DNA from: a virus
Taxonomy: Duplodnaviria; Heunggongvirae; Uroviricota; Caudoviricetes
DNA: 33,139 nucleotides
Direction: 5' to 3' (one strand)
Virus record (IMG/VR): IMGVR_UViG_2703719355_000019
The translations under genes were made by a program, and so were the position numbers. Numbering within the stretch: position 1 is the first letter of the stretch; each line of letters starts with the position of its first letter. Below are positions 24,959-33,139 of this stretch, piece after piece. Below the pieces are notes generated by a model, which was not told the DNA's origin, did no database searches, and worked only from the letters and a program-made list of their open reading frames with translations.

Positions 24959-25177
24959 TCAACCCGCGTAATCGGGGCCGTGTTCCCATCTGGCATCGAG
25001 TATTTCCGTTCCATCTGTCCGGCATGGGTTATCAAGTGCCATTTTTCCGCACTCCCCATACTCGACATCGACAAAATCAGCAATATCATTGTCCGTTGCG
25101 TTATCAGGAACGTCGATTTCAACCGTTACGGTGATAGTTTTCATCAGGTTGTTACTCCGTGATTCAGAAAATTTCAT
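24959..25177 (-). CDS. small acidic protein (72 aa)
   Basis: ATG at 25177; alternative ATG at 25144 (MKTITVTVEIDV..); rich in Asp/Glu. Confidence 0.5.
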   Translation of the reverse strand: MKFSESRSNNLMKTITVTVEIDVPDNATDNDIADFVDVEYGECGKMALDNPCRTDGTEILDARWEHGPDYAG

Positions 25178-25185
25178 GCCGGGAC

Positions 25186-25596
25186 TCAGTATGTGAAATA
25201 GACAGTTGCCACACCGTTATAGTGGTCAAACGACACAGCGTTTACCTCATAACTGGCCGGGAGCTTCGAGCCAAGAACGTATCCGGGCCACGTTTTCCAT
25301 GGAATTTCTCTGCTCTCACTGTCGCCATATACCGTACATCCCAGTGAGCCTACAGCTTCATAAGAACGCTTACCGCACGTTATGAACCCCAGATGTTGCT
25401 TACTGCCCTTAACAGAAATCGGGAGAGCACTGGCTGATGCGTTAGCAGCGTCCCGCTCCTGTTGGCTTGCGATATTCGCAGAGTTTGCAGCAGCTACAGC
25501 AGCTGTGGTCGCAGCGGTAGATGCCACAATAACTGCTGAAGCCTGCGCCTGTTGGGTAATTGTCAGCAATGCCGCCACAAAAATCATTTTCTTCAC
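25186..25596 (-). CDS. secreted protein with N-terminal signal peptide
   Basis: GTG start at 25596 preceded by AGGAGG with a 6-nt spacer; MKKMIFVAALLTITQQAQA signal-like N-terminus; mature part contains two Cys. Confidence 0.7.
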   Translation of the reverse strand: MKKMIFVAALLTITQQAQASAVIVASTAATTAAVAAANSANIASQQERDAANASASALPISVKGSKQHLGFITCGKRSYEAVGSLGCTVYGDSESREIPWKTWPGYVLGSKLPASYEVNAVSFDHYNGVATVYFTY

Positions 25597-25608
25597 CTGG
25601 CACCTCCT

Positions 25609-25785
25609 TTACATACCGTGATTTTTCCTGCGGTTTTGCGCCGCGCTGGGCTTTTTGCAACAACTGTGCCCCATAACCCCTAAAAACCCTGTCAACCTCA
25701 ACCGTCTGTTACTAATCCTCACCCACCGCCAGACATCAAAGCCGTTTCTGCGAGCTAACAGAATTTTTGCCTTACGGTTTTTCAT
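25609..25785 (-). CDS. small basic protein B (58 aa), tandem paralogue
   Basis: ATG 25785-25783 overlaps the stop of paralogue A (ATGA); translation MKNRKAKILLARR..KKPSAAQNRRKNHGM. Confidence 0.45.
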   Translation of the reverse strand: MKNRKAKILLARRNGFDVWRWVRISNRRLRLTGFLGVMGHSCCKKPSAAQNRRKNHGM

Positions 25786-25958
25786 CGTACTGCGTACCCT
25801 TTATTCCGCCTGTTCTGTGACGCAGTAGGCTTACGCTTTGCGGCAAAAGCCACCTGACCAAATGGATGGAGTACCGCTATCTTATGGTTGCTAATAACCA
25901 GCTCCACCACACGCACAGGTCGCTGTAAAAGAAGGCGTTTTGCTTTACGGTTTTTCAT
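25782..25958 (-). CDS. small basic protein A (58 aa), tandem paralogue
   Basis: ATG 25958-25956 preceded by GAGGAAGG; translation MKNRKAKRLLLQR..KRKPTASQNRRNKGYAVR; the 112-aa track ORF 26120..25782 is an overextension. Confidence 0.5.
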   Translation of the reverse strand: MKNRKAKRLLLQRPVRVVELVISNHKIAVLHPFGQVAFAAKRKPTASQNRRNKGYAVR

Positions 25959-25959
25959 C

Positions 25960-26151
25960 TCATCCTTCCTCGCTTTTTGCAGTTTCAAACCACGCATCCT
26001 GCCCCACAACATCATCACCACATGGTGGTTCAGATTCTGAATAGCGACCGGCCCACCAGTATTTACCATTACGATGCTTTGCTGTGCCGCAACGCTGGCA
26101 TATGAAAATTGACCCATCACGCTGATAATGATGGATGTGCTCGTTACTCAT
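25960..26151 (-). CDS. small Cys/His-containing protein (63 aa), possible zinc-binding
   Basis: ORF with CQRCG..H motif; start overlaps upstream gene by 4 nt. Confidence 0.5.
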   Translation of the reverse strand: MSNEHIHHYQRDGSIFICQRCGTAKHRNGKYWWAGRYSESEPPCGDDVVGQDAWFETAKSEEG

Positions 26152-26372
26152 TGTGCAGCCTCCTGTTTTGCCACTTTAAACGCCCGTAACATCGGAACCG
26201 TTTTACCGGTGATGACGGTTTTCATTAAAAGGCCGCCGCCACTCTGGTGGCGCACTTCAGGAGCAACAAACAGCGCCGCATCCACAACCCGACAATAGCG
26301 ACGGAACTCCCAGAACCAGCAGGTAACAATGATTTTTGCGGTGACTCCGTAGTCATAAAATTCAATATTCAT
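26148..26372 (-). CDS. hypothetical protein (74 aa)
   Basis: ORF translationally coupled to both neighbours by 4-nt overlaps. Confidence 0.5.
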   Translation of the reverse strand: MNIEFYDYGVTAKIIVTCWFWEFRRYCRVVDAALFVAPEVRHQSGGGLLMKTVITGKTVPMLRAFKVAKQEAAQ

Positions 26373-26596
26373 TTGCAGTTAAACCTTCTTTTGTGACGTT
26401 CTACAGCGGCTTTCATGGCGTTGTGCACGGTTCTTTTAATAATCCGGCGTCCCGCACTGTCATAGAACCGCCACCGGGAAGCCTCCGGATATTTAGGGAA
26501 CTCAACCGCCGCGCTGTCGTCATTCATCCTGTATTCGTGGCGTTCTCCGGGCGGCTGGTATATTGCTTCGGTAACACTGAGAAGTTTAAAAGCCAT
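26369..26596 (-). CDS. hypothetical protein (75 aa)
   Basis: ORF starting 3 nt after the stop of the upstream 237-aa gene. Confidence 0.5.
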   Translation of the reverse strand: MAFKLLSVTEAIYQPPGERHEYRMNDDSAAVEFPKYPEASRWRFYDSAGRRIIKRTVHNAMKAAVERHKRRFNCK

Positions 26597-26598
26597 CG

Positions 26599-27312
26599 TT
26601 ATCCCCTCCCCAGTGCCAGCGGCCTGTTGTTCTGACCATTAACTCCCTGATGCAGTCTGGCGTTTTTCCCGGCGATAAAACCGGCTGTAGCAGCAAACTC
26701 TGCACCCCTGCACGCTTTAGCTGTGCGCATATCCCCGTCGCGCAGCCCTTTAGTGCTGTGCAGGTTCTTTCTGTAAAGCTCAAGGCGGCTTTTTTCTTCC
26801 GGGGAGACGTCATACACCGCAATGACATCACGGGCACCAAAGACCCAGCCTTCGCAGAACTGGTCGCCACGGACCACCCGCGTGGACGGACCGCAACGTT
26901 TGCAGTGTTTATCCTGATATTTCTTGCGCTCTGCCATCATCTGACGGGAAAGCACATCAAACGCATATGCCGCAATTTCCGGGCGGCTGTCAGGACCATA
27001 AAAACGCACGTAACGTTTGAGTGAACCAGAAGCCCGGTATTCACCTGAGATGTAACACTCGACACCGAAGGCTTTACATACCAGGTCACACAGGATGTGC
27101 ATATAACGCGGCGGCGTACTGGCATCACTCGGCGCACCCGCGCTGGCAGCTTCCTGAATGTCGAACAATTCCGCATCGTTTTCGCTGATACCATGCTGGC
27201 GCATATAAGCCTGGGCTTTTGCAATAGCGTTAGCGGCTTCTTCCGGGCTTGATGTTCCTCTGGCAAGGCGTAACAGTTTTTTGATTTTGGCGATGTATTT
27301 ATTTTTGCTCAT
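26599..27312 (-). CDS. DUF2786-like phage protein (237 aa)
   Basis: N-terminal KIKKLLRLARGTSSPEEAANAIAKAQAYMRQHGI resembles the DUF2786 motif; GGAGGG 8 nt upstream of ATG 27312. Confidence 0.65.
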   Translation of the reverse strand: MSKNKYIAKIKKLLRLARGTSSPEEAANAIAKAQAYMRQHGISENDAELFDIQEAASAGAPSDASTPPRYMHILCDLVCKAFGVECYISGEYRASGSLKRYVRFYGPDSRPEIAAYAFDVLSRQMMAERKKYQDKHCKRCGPSTRVVRGDQFCEGWVFGARDVIAVYDVSPEEKSRLELYRKNLHSTKGLRDGDMRTAKACRGAEFAATAGFIAGKNARLHQGVNGQNNRPLALGRG

Positions 27313-27694
27313 TGTCTACTCCCTCCAACAACGTGGTGATGAAATGTCCAGCCATTACTCCGGCATCACGATAAGCGCATCGTGTTTTGCTTTCTGATTG
27401 TTTACGCCGGGGAACGGAATAAGCTGATGCAAACATCTCCGCCCTGAATTGCTGCATTGTCAGGACTTTCAATTGCAGGAGACGCTCTTCATCGCTGCAT
27501 ACTGTGCTCATTAATCCATCAAGGATGACATTAAAAGCCCGGTATACCGGGTCATCTTTTGTTCGTTTTGTCAGGGCCACAGCACTGATTATTGACAATG
27601 CGCACTCAAGCTTTTTCAGCTCTGATAAGTTGTCGTTCTTTATTTCTGCATTTTTATTTAGCCATTCAACAGGTGACCAGACTTTATCTTTCAT
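27299..27694 (-). CDS. hypothetical cargo protein 2 (131 aa) behind duplicated leader
   Basis: ATG 27694 preceded by AAGGGGA; N-terminus MKDKVW shared with cargo protein 1, rest unrelated. Confidence 0.6.
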   Translation of the reverse strand: MKDKVWSPVEWLNKNAEIKNDNLSELKKLECALSIISAVALTKRTKDDPVYRAFNVILDGLMSTVCSDEERLLQLKVLTMQQFRAEMFASAYSVPRRKQSESKTRCAYRDAGVMAGHFITTLLEGVDNEQK

Positions 27695-27744
27695 ATACAA
27701 ATCCCCTTAATTCAGGCGTAAGCCAGCCCCGGCGGGTTTACGCC
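27681..27744 (-). repeat. duplicated 64-bp leader element, copy A
   Basis: Identical to 28306-28369 except one base; contains inverted repeat GGCGTAA..TTACGCC, the SD and the first codons of the downstream gene. Confidence 0.85.
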
Positions 27745-27773
27745 ATATACAAATAAAATTAAAAACAGACTTA

Positions 27774-28319
27774 TTAACTACGACGTTCAGCTTTCCGGTA
27801 ATGACGGTCAACAGACTTTACGAACGCCTTCACATCACGGGAAATCGAATCCAGCGGATAATATTCATCCAGCAGTTCCATTCCGCTGAATCGAATCTGA
27901 AAAAAATCAGGCTTATCTTTATATGACTCCATCAGGTCAATAAACCGCAGCTGACGCGGGAGGGATTCCTGCACACCTGAAATAGTGAGCAAATCATCTT
28001 CAAGGATGTATGCGAGGTCTTCCATATCCTTACAGTCAGACAGCATGGATATTCTTGTCAGTATGTTCCGTGTGGCGATATACAGCGCTGCTGTGTCATT
28101 CGCCATCATGGCGAACAAATCCCCCTGAATATACGCCCCGCTACTGGCCACAGCATTCCCGGCAATCTGGGCATCAAGCACTACATCCATAAAATTACCA
28201 GGTGCTCCCAGACAACCCAGCAAGGATGACGCCCATAACGCTACATTGGTTAATTTCTCAGATGAACGGGTAGCAAAACCTTCAGGAGTAACAATAAAAT
28301 CCCATACTTTATCTTTCAT
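27774..28319 (-). CDS. hypothetical cargo protein 1 (181 aa) behind duplicated leader
   Basis: ATG 28319 preceded by AAGGGGA; N-terminus MKDKVW. Confidence 0.65.
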   Translation of the reverse strand: MKDKVWDFIVTPEGFATRSSEKLTNVALWASSLLGCLGAPGNFMDVVLDAQIAGNAVASSGAYIQGDLFAMMANDTAALYIATRNILTRISMLSDCKDMEDLAYILEDDLLTISGVQESLPRQLRFIDLMESYKDKPDFFQIRFSGMELLDEYYPLDSISRDVKAFVKSVDRHYRKAERRS

Positions 28320-28369
28320 ATATAAATCCCCTTAATTCAGGCGTAAGCCAGCCCCGGCGGGTTTACGCC
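28306..28369 (-). repeat. duplicated 64-bp leader element, copy B
   Basis: See copy A; the two copies are 625 bp apart. Confidence 0.85.
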
Positions 28370-28400
28370 TGTTTTAAATAACAATTAAAAATGAATTAAA

Positions 28401-28592
28401 TTAATGTGCTGCTTTCAGTGTTTCGACCTTTACGAAATAAGGCTCGACATTAATTTCAACCACACAACCACATTTAAAATCTCTGGCCGGTGCAACAGTT
28501 TTTACCACCCGACCACCACGCACCGCCTGATGTGCAATGTGCATGAAACGAGTACCAGGCGGATATAACTGATTAAAGCGTTTCGCGTTCAT
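28401..28592 (-). CDS. hypothetical small protein (63 aa)
   Basis: ATG 28592 (MNAKRFNQLYPPG..); start chosen inside the longer track ORF 28718..28401; overlaps upstream gene by 20 nt. Confidence 0.35.
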   Translation of the reverse strand: MNAKRFNQLYPPGTRFMHIAHQAVRGGRVVKTVAPARDFKCGCVVEINVEPYFVKVETLKAAH

Positions 28593-28806
28593 GAATCGGC
28601 TTCCATCCTTTCTGGTGAGCATTGGCACAGAACTGTGCCCGGTGTTCTGCCCAGATGCGGCGCAGGGTGCTACACGGGCTTTGCGCTGCCTTACGCCACA
28701 GCTTTTCAGCCTCGGCATAATCGCCGCGTTGTTCTGCTCTGGACGCGCCCAGCGAATACGCCGCGCAACTATTTCTGGCTCTGTACTCTTTGATATCCTG
28801 ATGCAT
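28573..28806 (-). CDS. small protein (77 aa), possible ANR-like regulator
   Basis: ATG 28806 one nt after the upstream stop, preceded by AGGGG; RGDYAEAEKLWRKAA and IWAEHRAQFC motifs resemble small ANR-type phage regulators. Confidence 0.45.
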   Translation of the reverse strand: MHQDIKEYRARNSCAAYSLGASRAEQRGDYAEAEKLWRKAAQSPCSTLRRIWAEHRAQFCANAHQKGWKPIHERETL

Positions 28807-28807
28807 G

Positions 28808-29452
28808 TTAAACCCCTGCAATATCAAGCGGGATTGCGCGGTATTCATCAGAATCACCGACGCGCTCATACACGCGGATATAGCTTCTGCTACCAACCAC
28901 CTGGACGGCTTCACCAATCAGTTTCATGGCGTTATCCCAGCGTTCCTCCGTAATATCGAGACGACGCAGAGCCAGAACGCGACCGGTGTTGATGTTGCCT
29001 TCCTTGTCCGTGCTGAATGCCTCACTGATGATGGCCTTAATTTCAGGGCGTGCGCCTTCCGTCCAGTCAGCCAGACAGTCATCAATCAGCGCCTTCGCGG
29101 TCTGAATGCGTTCATCAAGCGCGATACGGTCCTGCATGGCGCGCTGAATCTTGTAACGCCCGTCAAAGCTGTACAGCGTGATATTCCCTTTTTTACCGCC
29201 TTTCACAGCGCCGTATTTCTCCGCCGACAGGTCAATAAATGCCTGAATATCACCAAACGCACGCAGCTTCAGTTCACGCAGTGAGGCGGAGGCAGCAATC
29301 ACCATCTCCACAAGCTCACCGACCAGCTGCTCACGGTCGCGGTCAATATCTTTGATAAGACTTTCAGGCGTCATCACACCACGGGCATCAACCCAGTAGC
29401 CTTCCTGCACTTTATTTTTTGTATATTGCTTAACTTTGTTTTCAGTCATCAT
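28808..29452 (-). CDS. conserved Mu-like early-region protein (214 aa), tentatively DUF3164-like
   Basis: Long ORF in the early operon; family assignment is from memory and untested. Confidence 0.65.
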   Translation of the reverse strand: MMTENKVKQYTKNKVQEGYWVDARGVMTPESLIKDIDRDREQLVGELVEMVIAASASLRELKLRAFGDIQAFIDLSAEKYGAVKGGKKGNITLYSFDGRYKIQRAMQDRIALDERIQTAKALIDDCLADWTEGARPEIKAIISEAFSTDKEGNINTGRVLALRRLDITEERWDNAMKLIGEAVQVVGSRSYIRVYERVGDSDEYRAIPLDIAGV

Positions 29453-29481
29453 AATTAAATTACCTCAGTGATATTTACAGA

Positions 29482-29697
29482 TTAATTTGTGTTATGTGCG
29501 CGAGGCGCAACGTTTTCAGAAAAAAGATTCACGCCGTTATAGTCATTTCTGAGCGTTTCCTTGATAACATCATGTAATCTTGTTGCCACCTGAAACTCCT
29601 TTTCGGAAGCTCCGTCCTTCGAATAACTCCCCGTGGTCTGGGTTAATACACAGCCTTTTTCATCGGTATAGATAATTACTTCTAACTTAACCGCCAT
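29482..29697 (-). CDS. hypothetical protein (71 aa)
   Basis: ORF in the early operon downstream of B. Confidence 0.5.
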   Translation of the reverse strand: MAVKLEVIIYTDEKGCVLTQTTGSYSKDGASEKEFQVATRLHDVIKETLRNDYNGVNLFSENVAPRAHNTN

Positions 29698-29709
29698 TCT
29701 GATTTCCTC

Positions 29710-29949
29710 TCATTGCCATACGACGGTGCAGCCGTCGATACAGGACGTTTTAACCACGCGGCGCAGGCCGCTGAATGTCTGGATGATTTCCGTTACCGGC
29801 CATACAGGACCACCCACGGGCGGGCAGGCATAAACCACAGGTAAACGGTGATGTTGTCCCGTTACACGACCACCAGTGGTGTGGATGGCCACACGGGCAC
29901 GGGAACGGACGGCGTTAATGGTCTGCTTGTCCATCGTCTTGTTCTCCAT
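29710..29949 (-). CDS. hypothetical protein (79 aa), first gene after B
   Basis: ATG overlaps the B stop (TGATG); Cys-containing. Confidence 0.5.
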   Translation of the reverse strand: MENKTMDKQTINAVRSRARVAIHTTGGRVTGQHHRLPVVYACPPVGGPVWPVTEIIQTFSGLRRVVKTSCIDGCTVVWQ

Positions 29950-30842
29950 CAGTGAATTAACATTTCTGCGAATTTATCAATGGCCTGCACACTGACCGGC
30001 GCATCGCTGATATCACAAATCCGGTACACACCACGCGCCAGCTTGAACAGACGGCGGGCATTACCCAGCGAACGTGTATAAAGCGCCTCGCTGATTTCCG
30101 GCTCTGCTGCTTCCGGCATCAACCCGGTAGCTATCTGGTTAAAATCTTCCTGCGACAACGTATCGCCCAGGTTAAGCGCCAGCGCCACGCGGCTGTATAA
30201 CTGGGCGAACTCACCACGACGCCCCTTGAGGTTAATCAGAAGGCGAGGCATACCCGCCAGAACAACCCCGATACCCGCTTTGTCATGCAGACGGCGCAGA
30301 ACCTCCAGGGCGCGATAGGGGAGCAGTTCAGCCTCGTCCACCATCAGCAGACGACCGGAATCACGCAGTTCGCGCACACAGGCATCTATCAGTTCGTGAA
30401 TGTTGCCGCGAACCTTTACCCCCAGCTGGCGGCACAACTCCTCAAGCAGTGTTCTGGCTGTATAGCCCGGGTCAGCCTCAATCAGGACCGCATCCCGGTT
30501 TCTGGCGGCGTATTCACGCAGAATCATTGTTTTGCCAAGACCTGCTGCGCCATACAGCACACAGATTTCACATTCCAGGTGAGCGTAGGCCAGCACCTCC
30601 AGTCCTTTGGCAGTCATACTGGTGGTCACAAACTTTGCTTTAATACGGCGGCTGTTTTCCTTTTCCCGCTCACGGGTCACAAAGGCAGAAATGCGTTCTT
30701 CAATATCAGCCATATCGCCCTGATATTTACCCTGTAAATACTGGCTGATAACGGCGCTGCTACGCCCAATGGCACGGGCGACGTGGGTCTGCGTATAGCC
30801 GCGACGGGCCATTACGTCATTTAATTGCGTAATTAAACTCAT
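29949..30842 (-). CDS. B: DNA transposition ATPase (MuB-like, AAA+)
   Basis: 297-aa ORF with Walker A GAAGLGKT; directly downstream of the transposase. Confidence 0.9.
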   Translation of the reverse strand: MSLITQLNDVMARRGYTQTHVARAIGRSSAVISQYLQGKYQGDMADIEERISAFVTREREKENSRRIKAKFVTTSMTAKGLEVLAYAHLECEICVLYGAAGLGKTMILREYAARNRDAVLIEADPGYTARTLLEELCRQLGVKVRGNIHELIDACVRELRDSGRLLMVDEAELLPYRALEVLRRLHDKAGIGVVLAGMPRLLINLKGRRGEFAQLYSRVALALNLGDTLSQEDFNQIATGLMPEAAEPEISEALYTRSLGNARRLFKLARGVYRICDISDAPVSVQAIDKFAEMLIH

Positions 30843-30860
30843 AATTAAATACCTTTTAAA

Positions 30861-32903
30861 TTAACGGTTGTTTGTGCCGTTTTTCTTTAAATTGCGCTCG
30901 CGTTCAGATGCGAATAAATAAAGTTCTTCTTTTTCCTTTTTCTCCGGGCGCTCCAGTCCATATCCCAGATTAAAGTCAGGCTTCTGCGTAATAGCCGGAG
31001 TAAGCTCGCGTTTAGCCTCTTCGATTTTCTGCGTGGCCCGTGCAATGCGGCCCCTGACGCGTTTCTCCAGTTTTTGTTCGATAACTGGTTTAGCGAAGGC
31101 ATCAACCTTGTTACCGTTCCAGATGGCATCGCAGATATAAGAGCCATCAGCCCGCCGGACAATGACGCTGTTTGCATCATGAATATCGTAACTGACCCTG
31201 ACTTCATTCCCGTGCTCTGCGGCCAGCTCATACGAGTAATAAATATTGTTGAATAACTGAATTTCCCCGCGAAATGTTTTGCGCGTCACTTCCGGCCTGA
31301 ACATTTCATGCAGTTCTTCCGGCGACAGGAAATCAATTTCAACATTCTGCTCTTTTATCAGTTTCCGGCGATACGCTGCCGGGCTGTAATGCTCGCCATC
31401 CTCTTTGCGAGGAAGGCTGCTGTGTGGCCGGTTGTTATAGCGTCTGACCTCCAGCTCTATGGCTGCCATCAGTTGCTCAAAGGTAGGGATTTCATCCCTC
31501 GCCTTAACCTGCCGTTTTGTCAGCTCTTTCCCTTTGTGGGTGGCCTTAATGGCTGACTGCATAATCCGTTGCTGCATCATTACGGTTTCCTTGTCTGCAT
31601 CCCTTGCGCAGTACGTCTGGAAACTCAGGGCCACGTCTTTGGGTATTTCCTTGTTAACCCTTTCAATCACCCCGCGCCCCTGCGGGTTACCTGGTATCCC
31701 CGTGTGATGTTCCACACCCAGACGGGGCAGAATCCCGGTAATATCGGCATCAAGCACCCGGTTTTTTTCGCCGCCCCCGTTATCGGAGTAATAAATCAGC
31801 GGTATCCCGTGCTGTGCCATGCCGTAACGTAACGCATCAGCAACGGCTATCACGTTCTCCGACAGGGACAGTGACCAGCCCACAATAAAGCGTTGTCCTG
31901 CATCCATAACCAGCGTCACTTCTGGCCGGAAAATATTGCCGGTCAGTGGGTTAAACGCGGTCATTTTCATACAGTGACCATCCCCGACCCATACCGCATT
32001 AACCGGTAATGTGCTCCAGTCGCGCCGCACAAAAGGATTGAGCGAACGCCAGGCTGAACCGGTGGAGCGGAAACGTTCTTTAACAATCACCGGAACGCTG
32101 CTTAACACCCGTCTGACTGCGTGAACTGAAGGCAGTGCTGCCAGCATTCCCGTATCATTCGCGTGTTTTTCATGCCACCAGGCTGAAAACTCGCGATACG
32201 CATATTCAACGGTCGGTCGCTTCCATGAACGATAGAACATAAAGAAATCGCTCAACCACCAGACCTGCTCCCACGGTGTTCCCTTATGATGACCGGGAGC
32301 CAGTAACGCCAGTAACTGATTGGCATCACCGCGCGCCATCACCCAGCTGGAGTACCAGCTATCCAGGCTGCCGGTGCTGACACCGGTTCGCTTTCCCTGA
32401 CGTGCATTTGCAGTATTAGCTGCTTCGATAATGCGGTCAGGTAACGCCCCCATGCGCACACCATCAACGATGTGCTTTAAAGCGGCCTTCCTGGTCATTC
32501 CGGCATACTCGCGCAGCTTATGCACTTCAGTAGCCAGCAATATCCGCGCATCAGCGATGGCCTTTTGCTTGTCAGTCAGTGCCTGAACTTCACGTAATGC
32601 CAGTTCCGGGCATTTGACCATCACCTCCAGTTCATCGCGAACGGCGACGTTTTTAACTGCCTTCTGCTCAACCACGGCGGGCAGTTGCGTATCTTCCAGA
32701 ACCTGATGGGTCAGGCGCTTACGTAAAACTTTCTGCGCTTCAGCGGGCAGGCAGTCGATGTGATACTCGAATGCTTTGGTGCCTTCGCGCTTGCGCTTCC
32801 ATTCCGGGTGCGTCTCTGTGATCCGATTGAGCGTCCAGCGCACCCCCTGAACTGTACCGGGCAAACCAGGAAGACCGGCCAGCTCATTGGCTGAATAAAA
32901 CAT
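30861..32903 (-). CDS. A: DDE transposase (MuA-like)
   Basis: 680-aa ORF between the ner-like and B-like genes; size and position match MuA. Confidence 0.9.
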   Translation of the reverse strand: MFYSANELAGLPGLPGTVQGVRWTLNRITETHPEWKRKREGTKAFEYHIDCLPAEAQKVLRKRLTHQVLEDTQLPAVVEQKAVKNVAVRDELEVMVKCPELALREVQALTDKQKAIADARILLATEVHKLREYAGMTRKAALKHIVDGVRMGALPDRIIEAANTANARQGKRTGVSTGSLDSWYSSWVMARGDANQLLALLAPGHHKGTPWEQVWWLSDFFMFYRSWKRPTVEYAYREFSAWWHEKHANDTGMLAALPSVHAVRRVLSSVPVIVKERFRSTGSAWRSLNPFVRRDWSTLPVNAVWVGDGHCMKMTAFNPLTGNIFRPEVTLVMDAGQRFIVGWSLSLSENVIAVADALRYGMAQHGIPLIYYSDNGGGEKNRVLDADITGILPRLGVEHHTGIPGNPQGRGVIERVNKEIPKDVALSFQTYCARDADKETVMMQQRIMQSAIKATHKGKELTKRQVKARDEIPTFEQLMAAIELEVRRYNNRPHSSLPRKEDGEHYSPAAYRRKLIKEQNVEIDFLSPEELHEMFRPEVTRKTFRGEIQLFNNIYYSYELAAEHGNEVRVSYDIHDANSVIVRRADGSYICDAIWNGNKVDAFAKPVIEQKLEKRVRGRIARATQKIEEAKRELTPAITQKPDFNLGYGLERPEKKEKEELYLFASERERNLKKNGTNNR

Positions 32904-33139
32904 TACGCCGCCTTACTGGCATACCGGCTTGGCCAGATCTCCGCAGGTTCCACACCAATAGCATCGGCTATGATGCGTTCATATTTAGGGCATGAGCGAT
33001 ACAGTGCATTTTTTAAAGAGTCTTTTTTTAGACCAGCGCGTTCAGAAAGTTCACGCAATGTAAAACCTTTGGTGTGCACAGCGGCAACGATGTACTCGCG
33101 GTGCCAGTCTTTGTTCATTACTTCATTTCTAACCATCAT
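32903..33139 (-). CDS. ner: Ner-like DNA-binding regulator
   Basis: 78-aa ORF with DWHR and IWPSRY motifs shared with Mu Ner; ATG at the last three bases of the window. Confidence 0.85.
   Translation of the reverse strand: MMVRNEVMNKDWHREYIVAAVHTKGFTLRELSERAGLKKDSLKNALYRSCPKYERIIADAIGVEPAEIWPSRYASKAA

Follow-up and report, generated by a model that had tools for sequence, protein, structure and literature searches.

Comparison of Mu-like phages and prophages places a short non-coding element, a 30-nt imperfect hairpin preceded by an AT-rich spacer, at the border between the conserved early genes and a hypervariable accessory slot, where by these alignments it is the only sequence kept, and shows that crossovers at or between its copies add, remove and replace accessory genes. 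We give an even chance to the reading that the element punctuates the mRNA between cistrons of the Mu-family early operon and doubles as an accessory-cassette crossover point; the exchange can be followed in the genomes themselves, and the molecular function we infer. A cis-regulatory or RNA-processing role, one of the options raised in an earlier note on this DNA, is plausible as a proposal, no Rfam match and no promoter or terminator consensus having been found.

A repeat search of the window (the whole 33,139-nt stretch of viral DNA analysed here) returned a two-copy direct repeat at 27677-27773 and 28302-28398 (97 nt, 87% identity, spacing 625), and the span of the two copies (27677..28398, minus strand, period 625) brackets a gene for a 181-aa protein. 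Between 27681-27744 and 28306-28369 the copies are identical at 63 of 64 positions, with ATTTGTAT versus ATTTATAT as the single-base difference that the earlier note had reported; in 33 kb, a 64-nt match broken at one base is not remotely expected by chance. On the minus strand each copy runs from the AT-rich spacer through the hairpin GGCGTAA..TTACGCC, TGAATT, the SD AAGGGGA and the ATG to the codons for MKDKVW, and the repeat continues ~24 nt past the 64-bp coordinates into the spacer upstream and 4 nt into the ORFs. In copy A (all features on the minus strand) the spacer extends from the stop codon of the upstream 63-aa gene to the hairpin (28370..28400) and holds three AT blocks ~11 nt apart (aTTTAA / aaTTAA / TTTAAA), the hairpin, GGCGTAAACCCGCCGGGGCTGGCTTACGCC, occupies 28340..28369, and the linker TGAAT with the SD AAGGGGA (28320..28339) leads up to the ATG of the 181-aa gene. 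In copy B, likewise on the minus strand, the spacer follows the stop codon of the 181-aa gene (27745..27773) and is AT-rich with a degenerate three-block pattern, the hairpin (27715..27744) has the same sequence as in copy A, and the linker TGAAT and SD AAGGGGA lie at 27695..27714. The conserved unit, judged from the aligned relatives, is the 30-nt imperfect hairpin with its flanks and not the SD or the first codons of the 64-bp leader; the SD and MKDKxW leader accompanies only the families of the 181-aa protein and of the 131-aa protein encoded behind copy B, and is found there with either of two hairpin types.

The hairpin folds as (((((((.((.((....)).)).))))))) with a dG of -13.9 kcal/mol, its stem having 13 pairing positions of which two are conserved 1x1 mismatches. 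On the sense strand 86.5% of cells are paired, compared with 21-44% when the partners are slid, double changes occur at four pairs, and the covariation score was reached in none of 500 shuffles (0/500). RNAalifold independently returned this hairpin alone, with compensatory changes in 6 of 10 pairs, and the consensus fold contained no structural extension into the flanks and no pairing with the SD. Mu has a stem of GCGA/TCGC in place of the window's GTAA/TTAC and even so retains the GGCG..CGCC lower stem, which, together with A8, C10 and the loop GGG, is invariant or nearly so across 24 variants. The compensatory stem changes support the idea that the hairpin is under selection as a folded structure.

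The antisense strand pairs equally well (89.7% versus 86.5% for sense), so that by its sequence the hairpin may act on either strand or at the DNA level. Individual hairpin variants favour either strand in fold energy, and the asymmetry of the non-Watson-Crick pairs outside the conserved A.C position (13 G.U and 4 A.C on the sense strand) may be a weak hint towards the sense strand. A hairpin working on the opposite strand could be a terminator or insulator against transcription opposing the early genes. In most variants folding gains 2-8 kcal/mol in stability on the antisense strand, because the sense A.C mismatch turns into a G.U pair there, and in many lineages the antisense hairpin leads into a T-containing tail, for example ATTTTTAAAG or TGTTTTAAAT. 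We nevertheless consider this improbable, as the tail is inconsistent in T (ATATACAAAT at window copy B, ATAATTAAAAG in Mu, AAAATTAAACG in others), a terminator scan called neither window copy nor the Mu copy, the sense-strand fold is the better one in several variants, no consistent downstream gene or promoter was seen on the opposite strand, and the fixed distance to the sense start codon would be left unexplained. A Rho-independent terminator was also rejected: the sense tail after the hairpin is UGAAUUAAGG, with no U tract, and the scan called neither window copy on either strand.

We defined a class, R1, as an AT-rich spacer, a GGCG..CGCC hairpin, a linker and an SD on the gene strand of a Mu-like early region, and all of these are present in the window. 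The R1 covariance model matches the window at 28328-28404 (84 bits, E 1.6e-14) and 27703-27779 (79 bits, E 1.9e-13), scores that are partly by construction because the model was built in part from the window copies, and it matches Mu at 56 bits. The element is carried by 73 of the 80 loci seeded with DUF3164, on the gene strand without exception, and by the genomes of ~37 Enterobacterales species, where all true matches adjoin Mu-like genes. It lies between gam and gp11 in phage Mu itself and is also found in D108, SfMu and Yersinia Mu-like phages; copy number is two in the window and reaches three in relatives. At every copy, and for all cargo clusters, the start codon is 13-28 nt past the hairpin. 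A search of the window from 25000 to 33139 on both strands against Rfam 15 gave no covariance-model match at an E of 1 or below, the element is unannotated in the Mu records, and a literature search whose scope lay outside the 2002 Mu genome paper found no description of the Mu gam-gp11 hairpin.

The possibility, allowed for in the earlier note, that the repeat is a common host element can be set aside, since 49 of 5426 complete E. coli genomes have it, at 63 sites overall and with 1-2 copies per genome, and since in species genomes it lies beside Mu-like genes; this copy number and context rule out a host repeat of the REP/BIME type. There is a formal likeness: REPs too are imperfect, GC-rich palindromes (~30-35 nt) and occupy transcribed spacers separating co-directional genes, an arrangement that the window shares. 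REPs differ in having hundreds of chromosomal copies, compared with 1-2 per genome and only in Mu-like prophages for the element, and in lying close to the upstream stop codon, whereas the element lies close to the next start codon. REPs shield the upstream message from 3' exonucleases, and REP hairpins stabilise upstream cistrons in malEFG, the intercistronic REP between malE and malF being reportedly the one described by Newbury et al. in 1987.

A comparable effect is what we would propose for the hairpin, acting in the sense-strand early mRNA. It could block decay in the 3'-to-5' direction, or could guide endonucleolytic processing to the AU-rich stretches on either side of it, and in either case the upstream core message would be uncoupled in its fate from the variable genes downstream. 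The hairpin may also keep the ribosome-binding site 5-10 nt downstream clear of upstream pairing, so that any gene landing behind it would be translated. Processing by RNase E occurs in papBA, and stem-loops can position RNase E cleavage; RNase E motifs are too degenerate for testing at the element. The hairpins of the T7 early region, which are RNase III sites, resemble it in separating the genes of one long early transcript of a phage, whose mRNA they could punctuate, yet they are irregular hairpins of ~20 bp or more while the element has 13 pairing positions including two mismatches. An RNase III site of this type was rejected, as the stem is too short for a classical site and the consensus fold does not extend into the flanks. 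Two further candidates were dropped, a CsrA site, to which the fit is inconsistent (the Mu loop is AGGA, yet most variants have GGG), and a lambda nut site, for which a check by eye found no boxA-like CGCTCTTA next to the hairpin.

The exchange of genes at the element is visible at the level of single cassettes. Prophages with an identical 131-aa protein occur both with and without the 181-aa gene and differ by one clean 625/626-bp gap whose ends lie inside the two hairpin copies. The 625-bp gap corresponds exactly to a single repeat unit that includes the 181-aa gene; recombination between the window copies would excise exactly 625 bp and thus give the form seen in the sibling prophages, and these alignments show the window's second copy to be part of the 181-aa gene cassette. 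Homology with E. coli UMNF18-type prophages stops at 27710, just past the hairpin and TGAAT and inside the linker of copy B, Mu and SfMu diverge 8-9 nt beyond the hairpin and have different downstream genes, and in related phages homology ends a few bases past the hairpin. At least 23 unrelated protein clusters, in ~120 distinct contexts, follow the element, the hairpin in front of them being identical or nearly so. The earlier note had read the 64-bp leader as a module behind which genes are swapped; the swapping is borne out by these clusters and by the presence or absence of the 625 bp, and the module itself has to be redrawn as the 30-nt hairpin and AT-rich spacer.

The exchange is explained by ordinary homologous recombination between the repeats. 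It could be argued that the element then has no molecular function of its own and is a passive scar or short homology persisting through recombinational copying, as gain and loss clearly proceed through the direct repeats and identical alleles occur in otherwise divergent phages. We regard this as highly unlikely, because the stem is upheld by compensatory substitutions, the element is retained in Mu despite both flanking genes differing, and it is present in 73 of 80 relatives with a fixed start-codon distance.

The closest known system is that of the PeSL (promoter-early stem-loop) cassettes of T4-type phages (Arbiol et al. 2010, PMC2839356; Comeau et al. 2014, PMC4122927). Both are short conserved stem-loop motifs repeated among non-essential orphan genes of a hyperplastic region, and in both recombination between copies gives insertions, deletions and replacements between related phages; the window conforms to this, with orphan genes of a hypervariable region bordered by the copies and a 625-bp indel that their recombination explains. 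The two differ in that a PeSL combines a strong sigma-70-like early promoter with a terminating stem-loop, while the Mu-family element has no promoter consensus and no U tract, lies within one long operon right before a ribosome-binding site, is present in 1-3 copies per genome as against dozens, and belongs to transposable rather than T4-like phages. The idea of regulatory motifs as recombination linkers would in this way be extended from T4-type to transposable phages.

This comparison raises the question of whether the element is instead a moron-type DNA expression cassette, the AT blocks being a promoter and the palindrome an operator or the transcript's 5'-terminal stabilising hairpin. 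Position-wise conservation among 29 lineage representatives gives the spacer consensus t.aaa.tAA....aaatTaAat...tTTTAAAaAT, in which blocks 1 and 3 are ~23 bp apart, like a -35 / -10 geometry, AANNAT fits the last six bases before the hairpin in most lineages, every copy stands directly before a gene with its own SD, and the T4-type PeSL cassettes do combine a promoter with a stem-loop (PMC2839356). In a consensus scan, however, neither the window copies nor the Mu copy gave a sigma-70 call, and the best hexamers reach ~7-8 of 12 by eye. The three-block pattern is missing at secondary copies although these retain the hairpin, and the alternative hairpin type is preceded by a T run. Moreover, a transcript starting ~7 nt past the putative -10 would begin within the 5' arm and so destroy the RNA hairpin, leaving the covariation of the inner stem unexplained. 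A promoter cassette is in our judgement rather unlikely. The ~11-nt spacing of the three AT blocks suggests the turn of a DNA helix rather than a property of RNA, and this counts against the punctuation reading.

Morons and the boundary (linker) sequences of lambdoid phages, reportedly described by Juhala et al. in 2000 and Clark et al. in 2001, share with the element the placing of extra genes between conserved ones and of short conserved sequences at mosaic junctions. Morons typically have their own promoter and terminator, in which they differ from it, and the lambdoid boundary sequences lack a covarying hairpin structure.

Conservation of the hairpin does not follow that of its surroundings. 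Its identity is 83-100% where the DNA of the upstream gene is 59-67% identical, the same 30-mer is found in loci whose neighbouring proteins are only 36-55% identical, and the hairpin alleles track neither flank similarity nor host (Providencia has the E. coli allele, while Xenorhabdus and Photorhabdus differ). The conserved GGG loop and near-invariant lower stem would be superfluous in a pure barrier or insulator and hint at sequence-specific recognition that the punctuation model does not explain. The hairpin might then be a recognition site, as RNA, single-stranded DNA or a DNA palindrome, for a phage or host protein that controls the accessory genes or promotes their capture. The near-invariant lower stem, A8, C10 and loop, conserved while compensatory change is tolerated elsewhere, the identical 30-mer beside divergent neighbours, the two conserved 1x1 mismatches and the independence of the alleles from flank and host all speak for such a site. 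Against it, no candidate binding protein emerged, the upstream neighbour is not constant (the 63-aa protein here, Gam in Mu), MuA is the only recombinase evident in the region, and ordinary homologous recombination at the element could also share alleles; we hold a recognition site to be unlikely, if not greatly so.

A more far-reaching version, which we consider very unlikely, is that the hairpin is the target of an active cassette-capture or homing-like mechanism of transposable phages, in which a phage or host protein binds or cuts the folded RNA or single-stranded DNA and so directs accessory genes to this single slot. Compatible with it are a lower stem and loop that hardly vary, the conserved mismatches, the alleles common to divergent phages and the presence of one hairpin per cassette, and, if true, it would amount to an integron-like function on a 30-nt hairpin with no known integrase. 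No recombinase was found among the scanned early-region ORFs near the element. Integron attC sites likewise form imperfect hairpins containing unpaired bases and separate the promoterless cassettes of unrelated genes in an array, but they measure 57-141 nt, have RYYYAAC/GTTRRRY cores and need IntI, whereas the element has 30 nt and GGCGTAA/TTACGCC; an attC site was ruled out by this length and core sequence.

Returning to the punctuation reading, Mu itself would offer a simple testable case of how a long phage operon divides up its message and secures the expression of genes it has newly gained. The surroundings of the element are those of the Mu-type early accessory region to which the earlier note had assigned it, with MuA, MuB, DUF3164, GemA and Mor as neighbours. 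Directly upstream in the window is the 63-aa gene (28401..28592, minus strand; ORF with a match to phrog_5591), homologues of whose product (36-100% identity) are encoded immediately 5' of the element in nearly all loci; in Mu gam replaces it. A gene with a Pfam match to DUF2786/DUF7168 (26599..27312, minus strand) is the commonest one directly behind an element without cargo, in 31 of the ~120 contexts.

The two cargo genes of the window are confined to E. coli. The 181-aa gene (27774..28319, minus strand), which with one element copy makes up the 625-bp cassette, is an E. coli-only orphan assigned to phrog_7741, and the 131-aa gene (27299..27694, minus strand), found in four E. coli clusters only, overlaps the start of the next gene by 14 nt at its 3' end; a program-made ORF listing extends it to a TTG at 27700. 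BLASTP of one protein against the other leaves MKDKVW alone in common, in agreement with the earlier description of them as unrelated after residue 6. Searches of Pfam, NCBIfam, PADLOC and PDB sequences gave no match for either, and word-indexed and exhaustive HMMER searches found close E. coli relatives only, an HMMER match to a mucin-binding repeat protein being judged spurious. The 131-aa protein falls into no family, and for the 181-aa one PHROGs offers a family of unknown function and nothing more. The AlphaFold models are all-helical with low confidence (pLDDT ~50), and Foldseek found no PDB match to them at an E of 0.001 or below. Nothing in these results points to the host-takeover or anti-defence role that had been suggested for the two proteins.

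Most of the at least 23 cargo families are without annotation. The semi-essential early region of the textbook phage Mu and its prophage relatives holds many small genes with no annotated function, and a conserved and easily searched non-coding anchor offers a handle for cataloguing such accessory genes of Mu-like prophages across Enterobacterales. Mu-like Pseudomonas phages carry acr-aca anti-CRISPR loci in their late region, under a promoter repressed by Aca. In these loci, too, small genes vary at a fixed place in a Mu-like genome, next to a conserved anchor usable for gene mining, the difference being that their anchor is a protein gene in the late region and here it is a non-coding hairpin in the early region. 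Two other cargo families had sub-threshold matches to Lar (restriction alleviation), which may be taken as a hint, the sole one in the accessory slot, of an anti-defence function.

The window, a Mu-like prophage, has its genes on the minus strand, among them MuA (30861-32903), a MuB-like AAA ATPase (29949-30842), DUF3164 (28808-29452), a 63-aa gene (28401-28592) and DUF2786/DUF7168 (26599-27312). A repeat search finds a single strong direct repeat here (27677-27773 and 28302-28398; 97 nt, 87% identity, period 625), and direct comparison of the two 64-nt copies described in the earlier note gives the same one-base difference. On the minus strand each copy reads AT-rich spacer, GGCGTAAACCCGCCGGGGCTGGCTTACGCC, TGAATT, AAGGGGA, ATG and the codons for MKDKVW, and this peptide is, as had been claimed, all that the 181-aa and 131-aa proteins have in common. 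The 30-mer GGCGTAAACCCGCCGGGGCTGGCTTACGCC forms a hairpin of 13 pairing positions including two 1x1 mismatches (dG -13.9 kcal/mol). Among 29 lineage representatives the 35 nt upstream of it hold three AT blocks spaced by about 11 nt (consensus t.aaa.tAA....aaatTaAat...tTTTAAAaAT), the first adjoining the stop codon of the upstream gene. On the 3′ side W-R-A-W-T-Y precedes the SD, and the start codon lies 13-28 nt past the hairpin in all cargo clusters. Secondary copies, such as the window's own second hairpin (27715-27744), keep hairpin and linker with a degenerate AT pattern.

The earlier note suggested the whole 64-bp leader as a modular unit. A shared unit does precede different genes; the identical 30-mer stands before many differing ribosome-binding sites and genes in E. 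coli loci and 35 IMG/VR contigs, and the unit is therefore the hairpin and not the SD and first codons. The SD+MKDKxW leader is confined to the 181-aa and 131-aa families and is also found behind a second hairpin type, GGCGCAGGTAAACAGGTCTGCGCC, downstream of a DUF7448 gene. This unrelated hairpin (comparison loci L005, 3619-3689, minus strand, and L188, 2456-2479) lies 3′ of the DUF7448 cargo gene with a T run before it, and retains the GGCG/CGCC clamp and TGAAT linker of the main hairpin, which suggests that hairpins of this kind form an interchangeable class and are not one single sequence.

Of 5426 complete E. coli genomes, 58 have a match to the 1.6-kb region; every match lies in a Mu-like prophage, and the genes found from the 63-aa gene to DUF2786 differ among these prophages. 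The hairpin with TGAAT occurs at 63 places, always in unannotated intergenic DNA, and since only 49 of the 5426 genomes carry it, in Mu-like context, it is not the host repetitive element that had been named as the refuting alternative. When 100,044 species genomes were scanned with a loose pattern, 63 stretches came up. Enterobacterales account for about 37 of them (Photorhabdus, Xenorhabdus, Pantoea, Erwinia, Yersinia, Providencia, Edwardsiella, Brenneria and others), every one with the AT-rich flank and with homologues of DUF3164, MuB or the 63-aa gene as neighbours; the others (Clostridia, Bacteroidales and others) have neither flank nor such neighbours, and their number is about that expected by chance. 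Eighty viral loci were seeded by DUF3164 alignment, with no use of the hairpin in their choice. In 73 of them a covariance model detects a copy on the gene strand, and in five of the 80 it detects two; the model rests on 38 diverse copies, and many of the 80 loci had contributed sequences to it. In the window the model finds the two copies only, at 84 and 79 bits.

Phage Mu itself (NC_000929) carries the element at 6333-6409 (hairpin GGCGCGATACGTCAGGAGATTGCTCGCGCC; covariance model 56 bits, E 2e-8), within the 98 nt that separate gam (Mup10) from gp11 (Mup11). In the Mu records the only features under the match are the two CDSs and a ribosome-binding site, and the element itself is unannotated. 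It is also present in D108, SfMu, Yersinia Mu-like phages and one Pseudomonas phage record, and was not found by the covariance model in BcepMu or phiE255. In the Pseudomonas phage VW-6B (MF975721; recorded host Pseudomonas fluorescens) the hairpin at 2501-2530 is identical to the Yersinia-type variant and has the same AT-rich flank, which suggests either that it was recently acquired from a Mu-like phage of enterobacteria or that the host assignment is doubtful.

Paired cells make up 86.5% across the 24 distinct variants of the hairpin, versus 21-44% with the partners slid; four pairs have changes on both sides, and the covariation score is reached by no shuffle. RNAalifold independently predicts this hairpin alone, with 6 of 10 pairs compensated, and Mu has GCGA/TCGC in place of GTAA/TTAC. 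Identity to divergent loci is 83-100% in the hairpin, versus 59-67% in upstream gene DNA and 54-77% in the spacer. Judged from these alignments, the hairpin structure is under selection. As antisense RNA most variants give the better fold, since the conserved sense A.C turns into G.U, and others fold better as sense RNA; overall pairing is 86.5% for sense versus 89.7% for antisense. With the A.C position excluded the sense strand has 13 G.U versus 4 A.C, at most a weak hint that it is the acting strand. That the hairpin is an antisense terminator is a reading weakened by scans and inconsistent tails, as is that of a promoter by scans and inconsistent hexamers.

Best supported is the reading as an intercistronic punctuation element at work in the sense early mRNA; we infer this RNA role from position, orientation and covariation, and from known cases such as stabilising REP sequences and operons processed by RNase E. 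The hairpin would act as a decay barrier or processing landmark beside AU-rich single-stranded stretches and would also insulate the adjacent ribosome-binding site, and the element, as the sole conserved sequence in the slot, doubles as the crossover point. However, a simple barrier leaves unexplained the invariant lower stem and loop (bottom GGCG/CGCC, A8, C10 and loop GGG are near-invariant), the conserved mismatches and the regular 11-nt spacing of the AT blocks, all of which keep alive the alternative that the hairpin is a specific binding site.

Our comparisons show an exchange role for the element. The proposal that different genes are swapped behind it holds: at least 23 protein clusters, unrelated to one another, lie downstream in about 120 distinct contexts; the commonest, DUF2786 (31 contexts), is the layout without cargo. 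Between the window and prophages of the E. coli UMNF18 type, homology stops at 27710, directly past the hairpin and TGAAT, and between Mu and SfMu (hairpin 1549-1578) it stops 8-9 nt past the hairpin, the next gene being gp11 versus DUF5420. Among loci with an identical 131-aa protein the 181-aa gene is present in three (L192, L197, L199) and absent in five (L193-L196, L198), and the two forms are ∼96-97% identical except for one 625/626-bp gap. This gap is one repeat period long, ends inside the two hairpin copies, and is what homologous recombination between the direct repeats, or its reverse, leaves behind.

Among known systems the PeSL cassette of T4-type phages (PMC2839356) comes closest, and has in common with the element a stem-loop, repetition around orphan genes and recombination-driven shuffling; of its defining promoter and terminator, the scans called neither at the element. 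Membership tests ruled out a REP, attC or RNase III site, the element fits no Rfam family, and literature searches turned up no description of it.

The 181-aa protein is phrog_7741, a PHROG without assigned function, with homologues in E. coli only, all at least 85% identical; when 1.84 billion representatives were searched exhaustively with HMMER, only a fragment and a spurious match to a mucin-binding repeat protein were added. The 131-aa protein has four close clusters in E. coli and no profile family match, in line with the earlier reading. AlphaFold models of both are all-helical (pLDDT ∼50), and Foldseek and PDB sequence searches gave no match for either. Ten other cargo families were checked, one being DUF7448. 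Two of the ten (L024, ∼2590-2900; ORFs of L156/L070) have sub-threshold matches to the Lar restriction-alleviation family (PF14354; 27.5 and 20.4 bits, cut-off 28.6), a weak hint that the slot can hold anti-restriction genes. In a Cedecea neteri locus (L137) the element is followed by a 125-aa protein with the start MKTDKVWQAITPPDGY, like the MKDKVWDFIVTPEGF start of the 181-aa family, which may therefore have distant relatives missed by sequence searches.

The 131-aa gene overlaps the DUF2786/DUF7168 gene start by 14 nt (27299-27312, minus strand) with no hairpin between, so the last cargo gene looks translationally coupled to this conserved gene; the alternative occupant in relatives is a 60-aa ORF (MNIAKQKKFAREINL...), often without annotation. 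Just upstream of the 63-aa gene in the early region sits a 77-aa ANR-family regulator (AraC negative regulator; 28573-28806, minus strand; NF033650, 57 bits versus a cut-off of 32), and ANR-type proteins could modulate host AraC-type regulators from the prophage. Further along the early region a 136-aa ORF (25186-25596, minus strand) has a signal-peptide-like N-terminus (MKKMIFVAALLTITQQAQA...), and a 63-aa Cys-rich ORF (25960-26151, minus strand) weakly matches a prokaryotic RING finger (E 0.0085, below cut-off). The two are possible further accessory genes.
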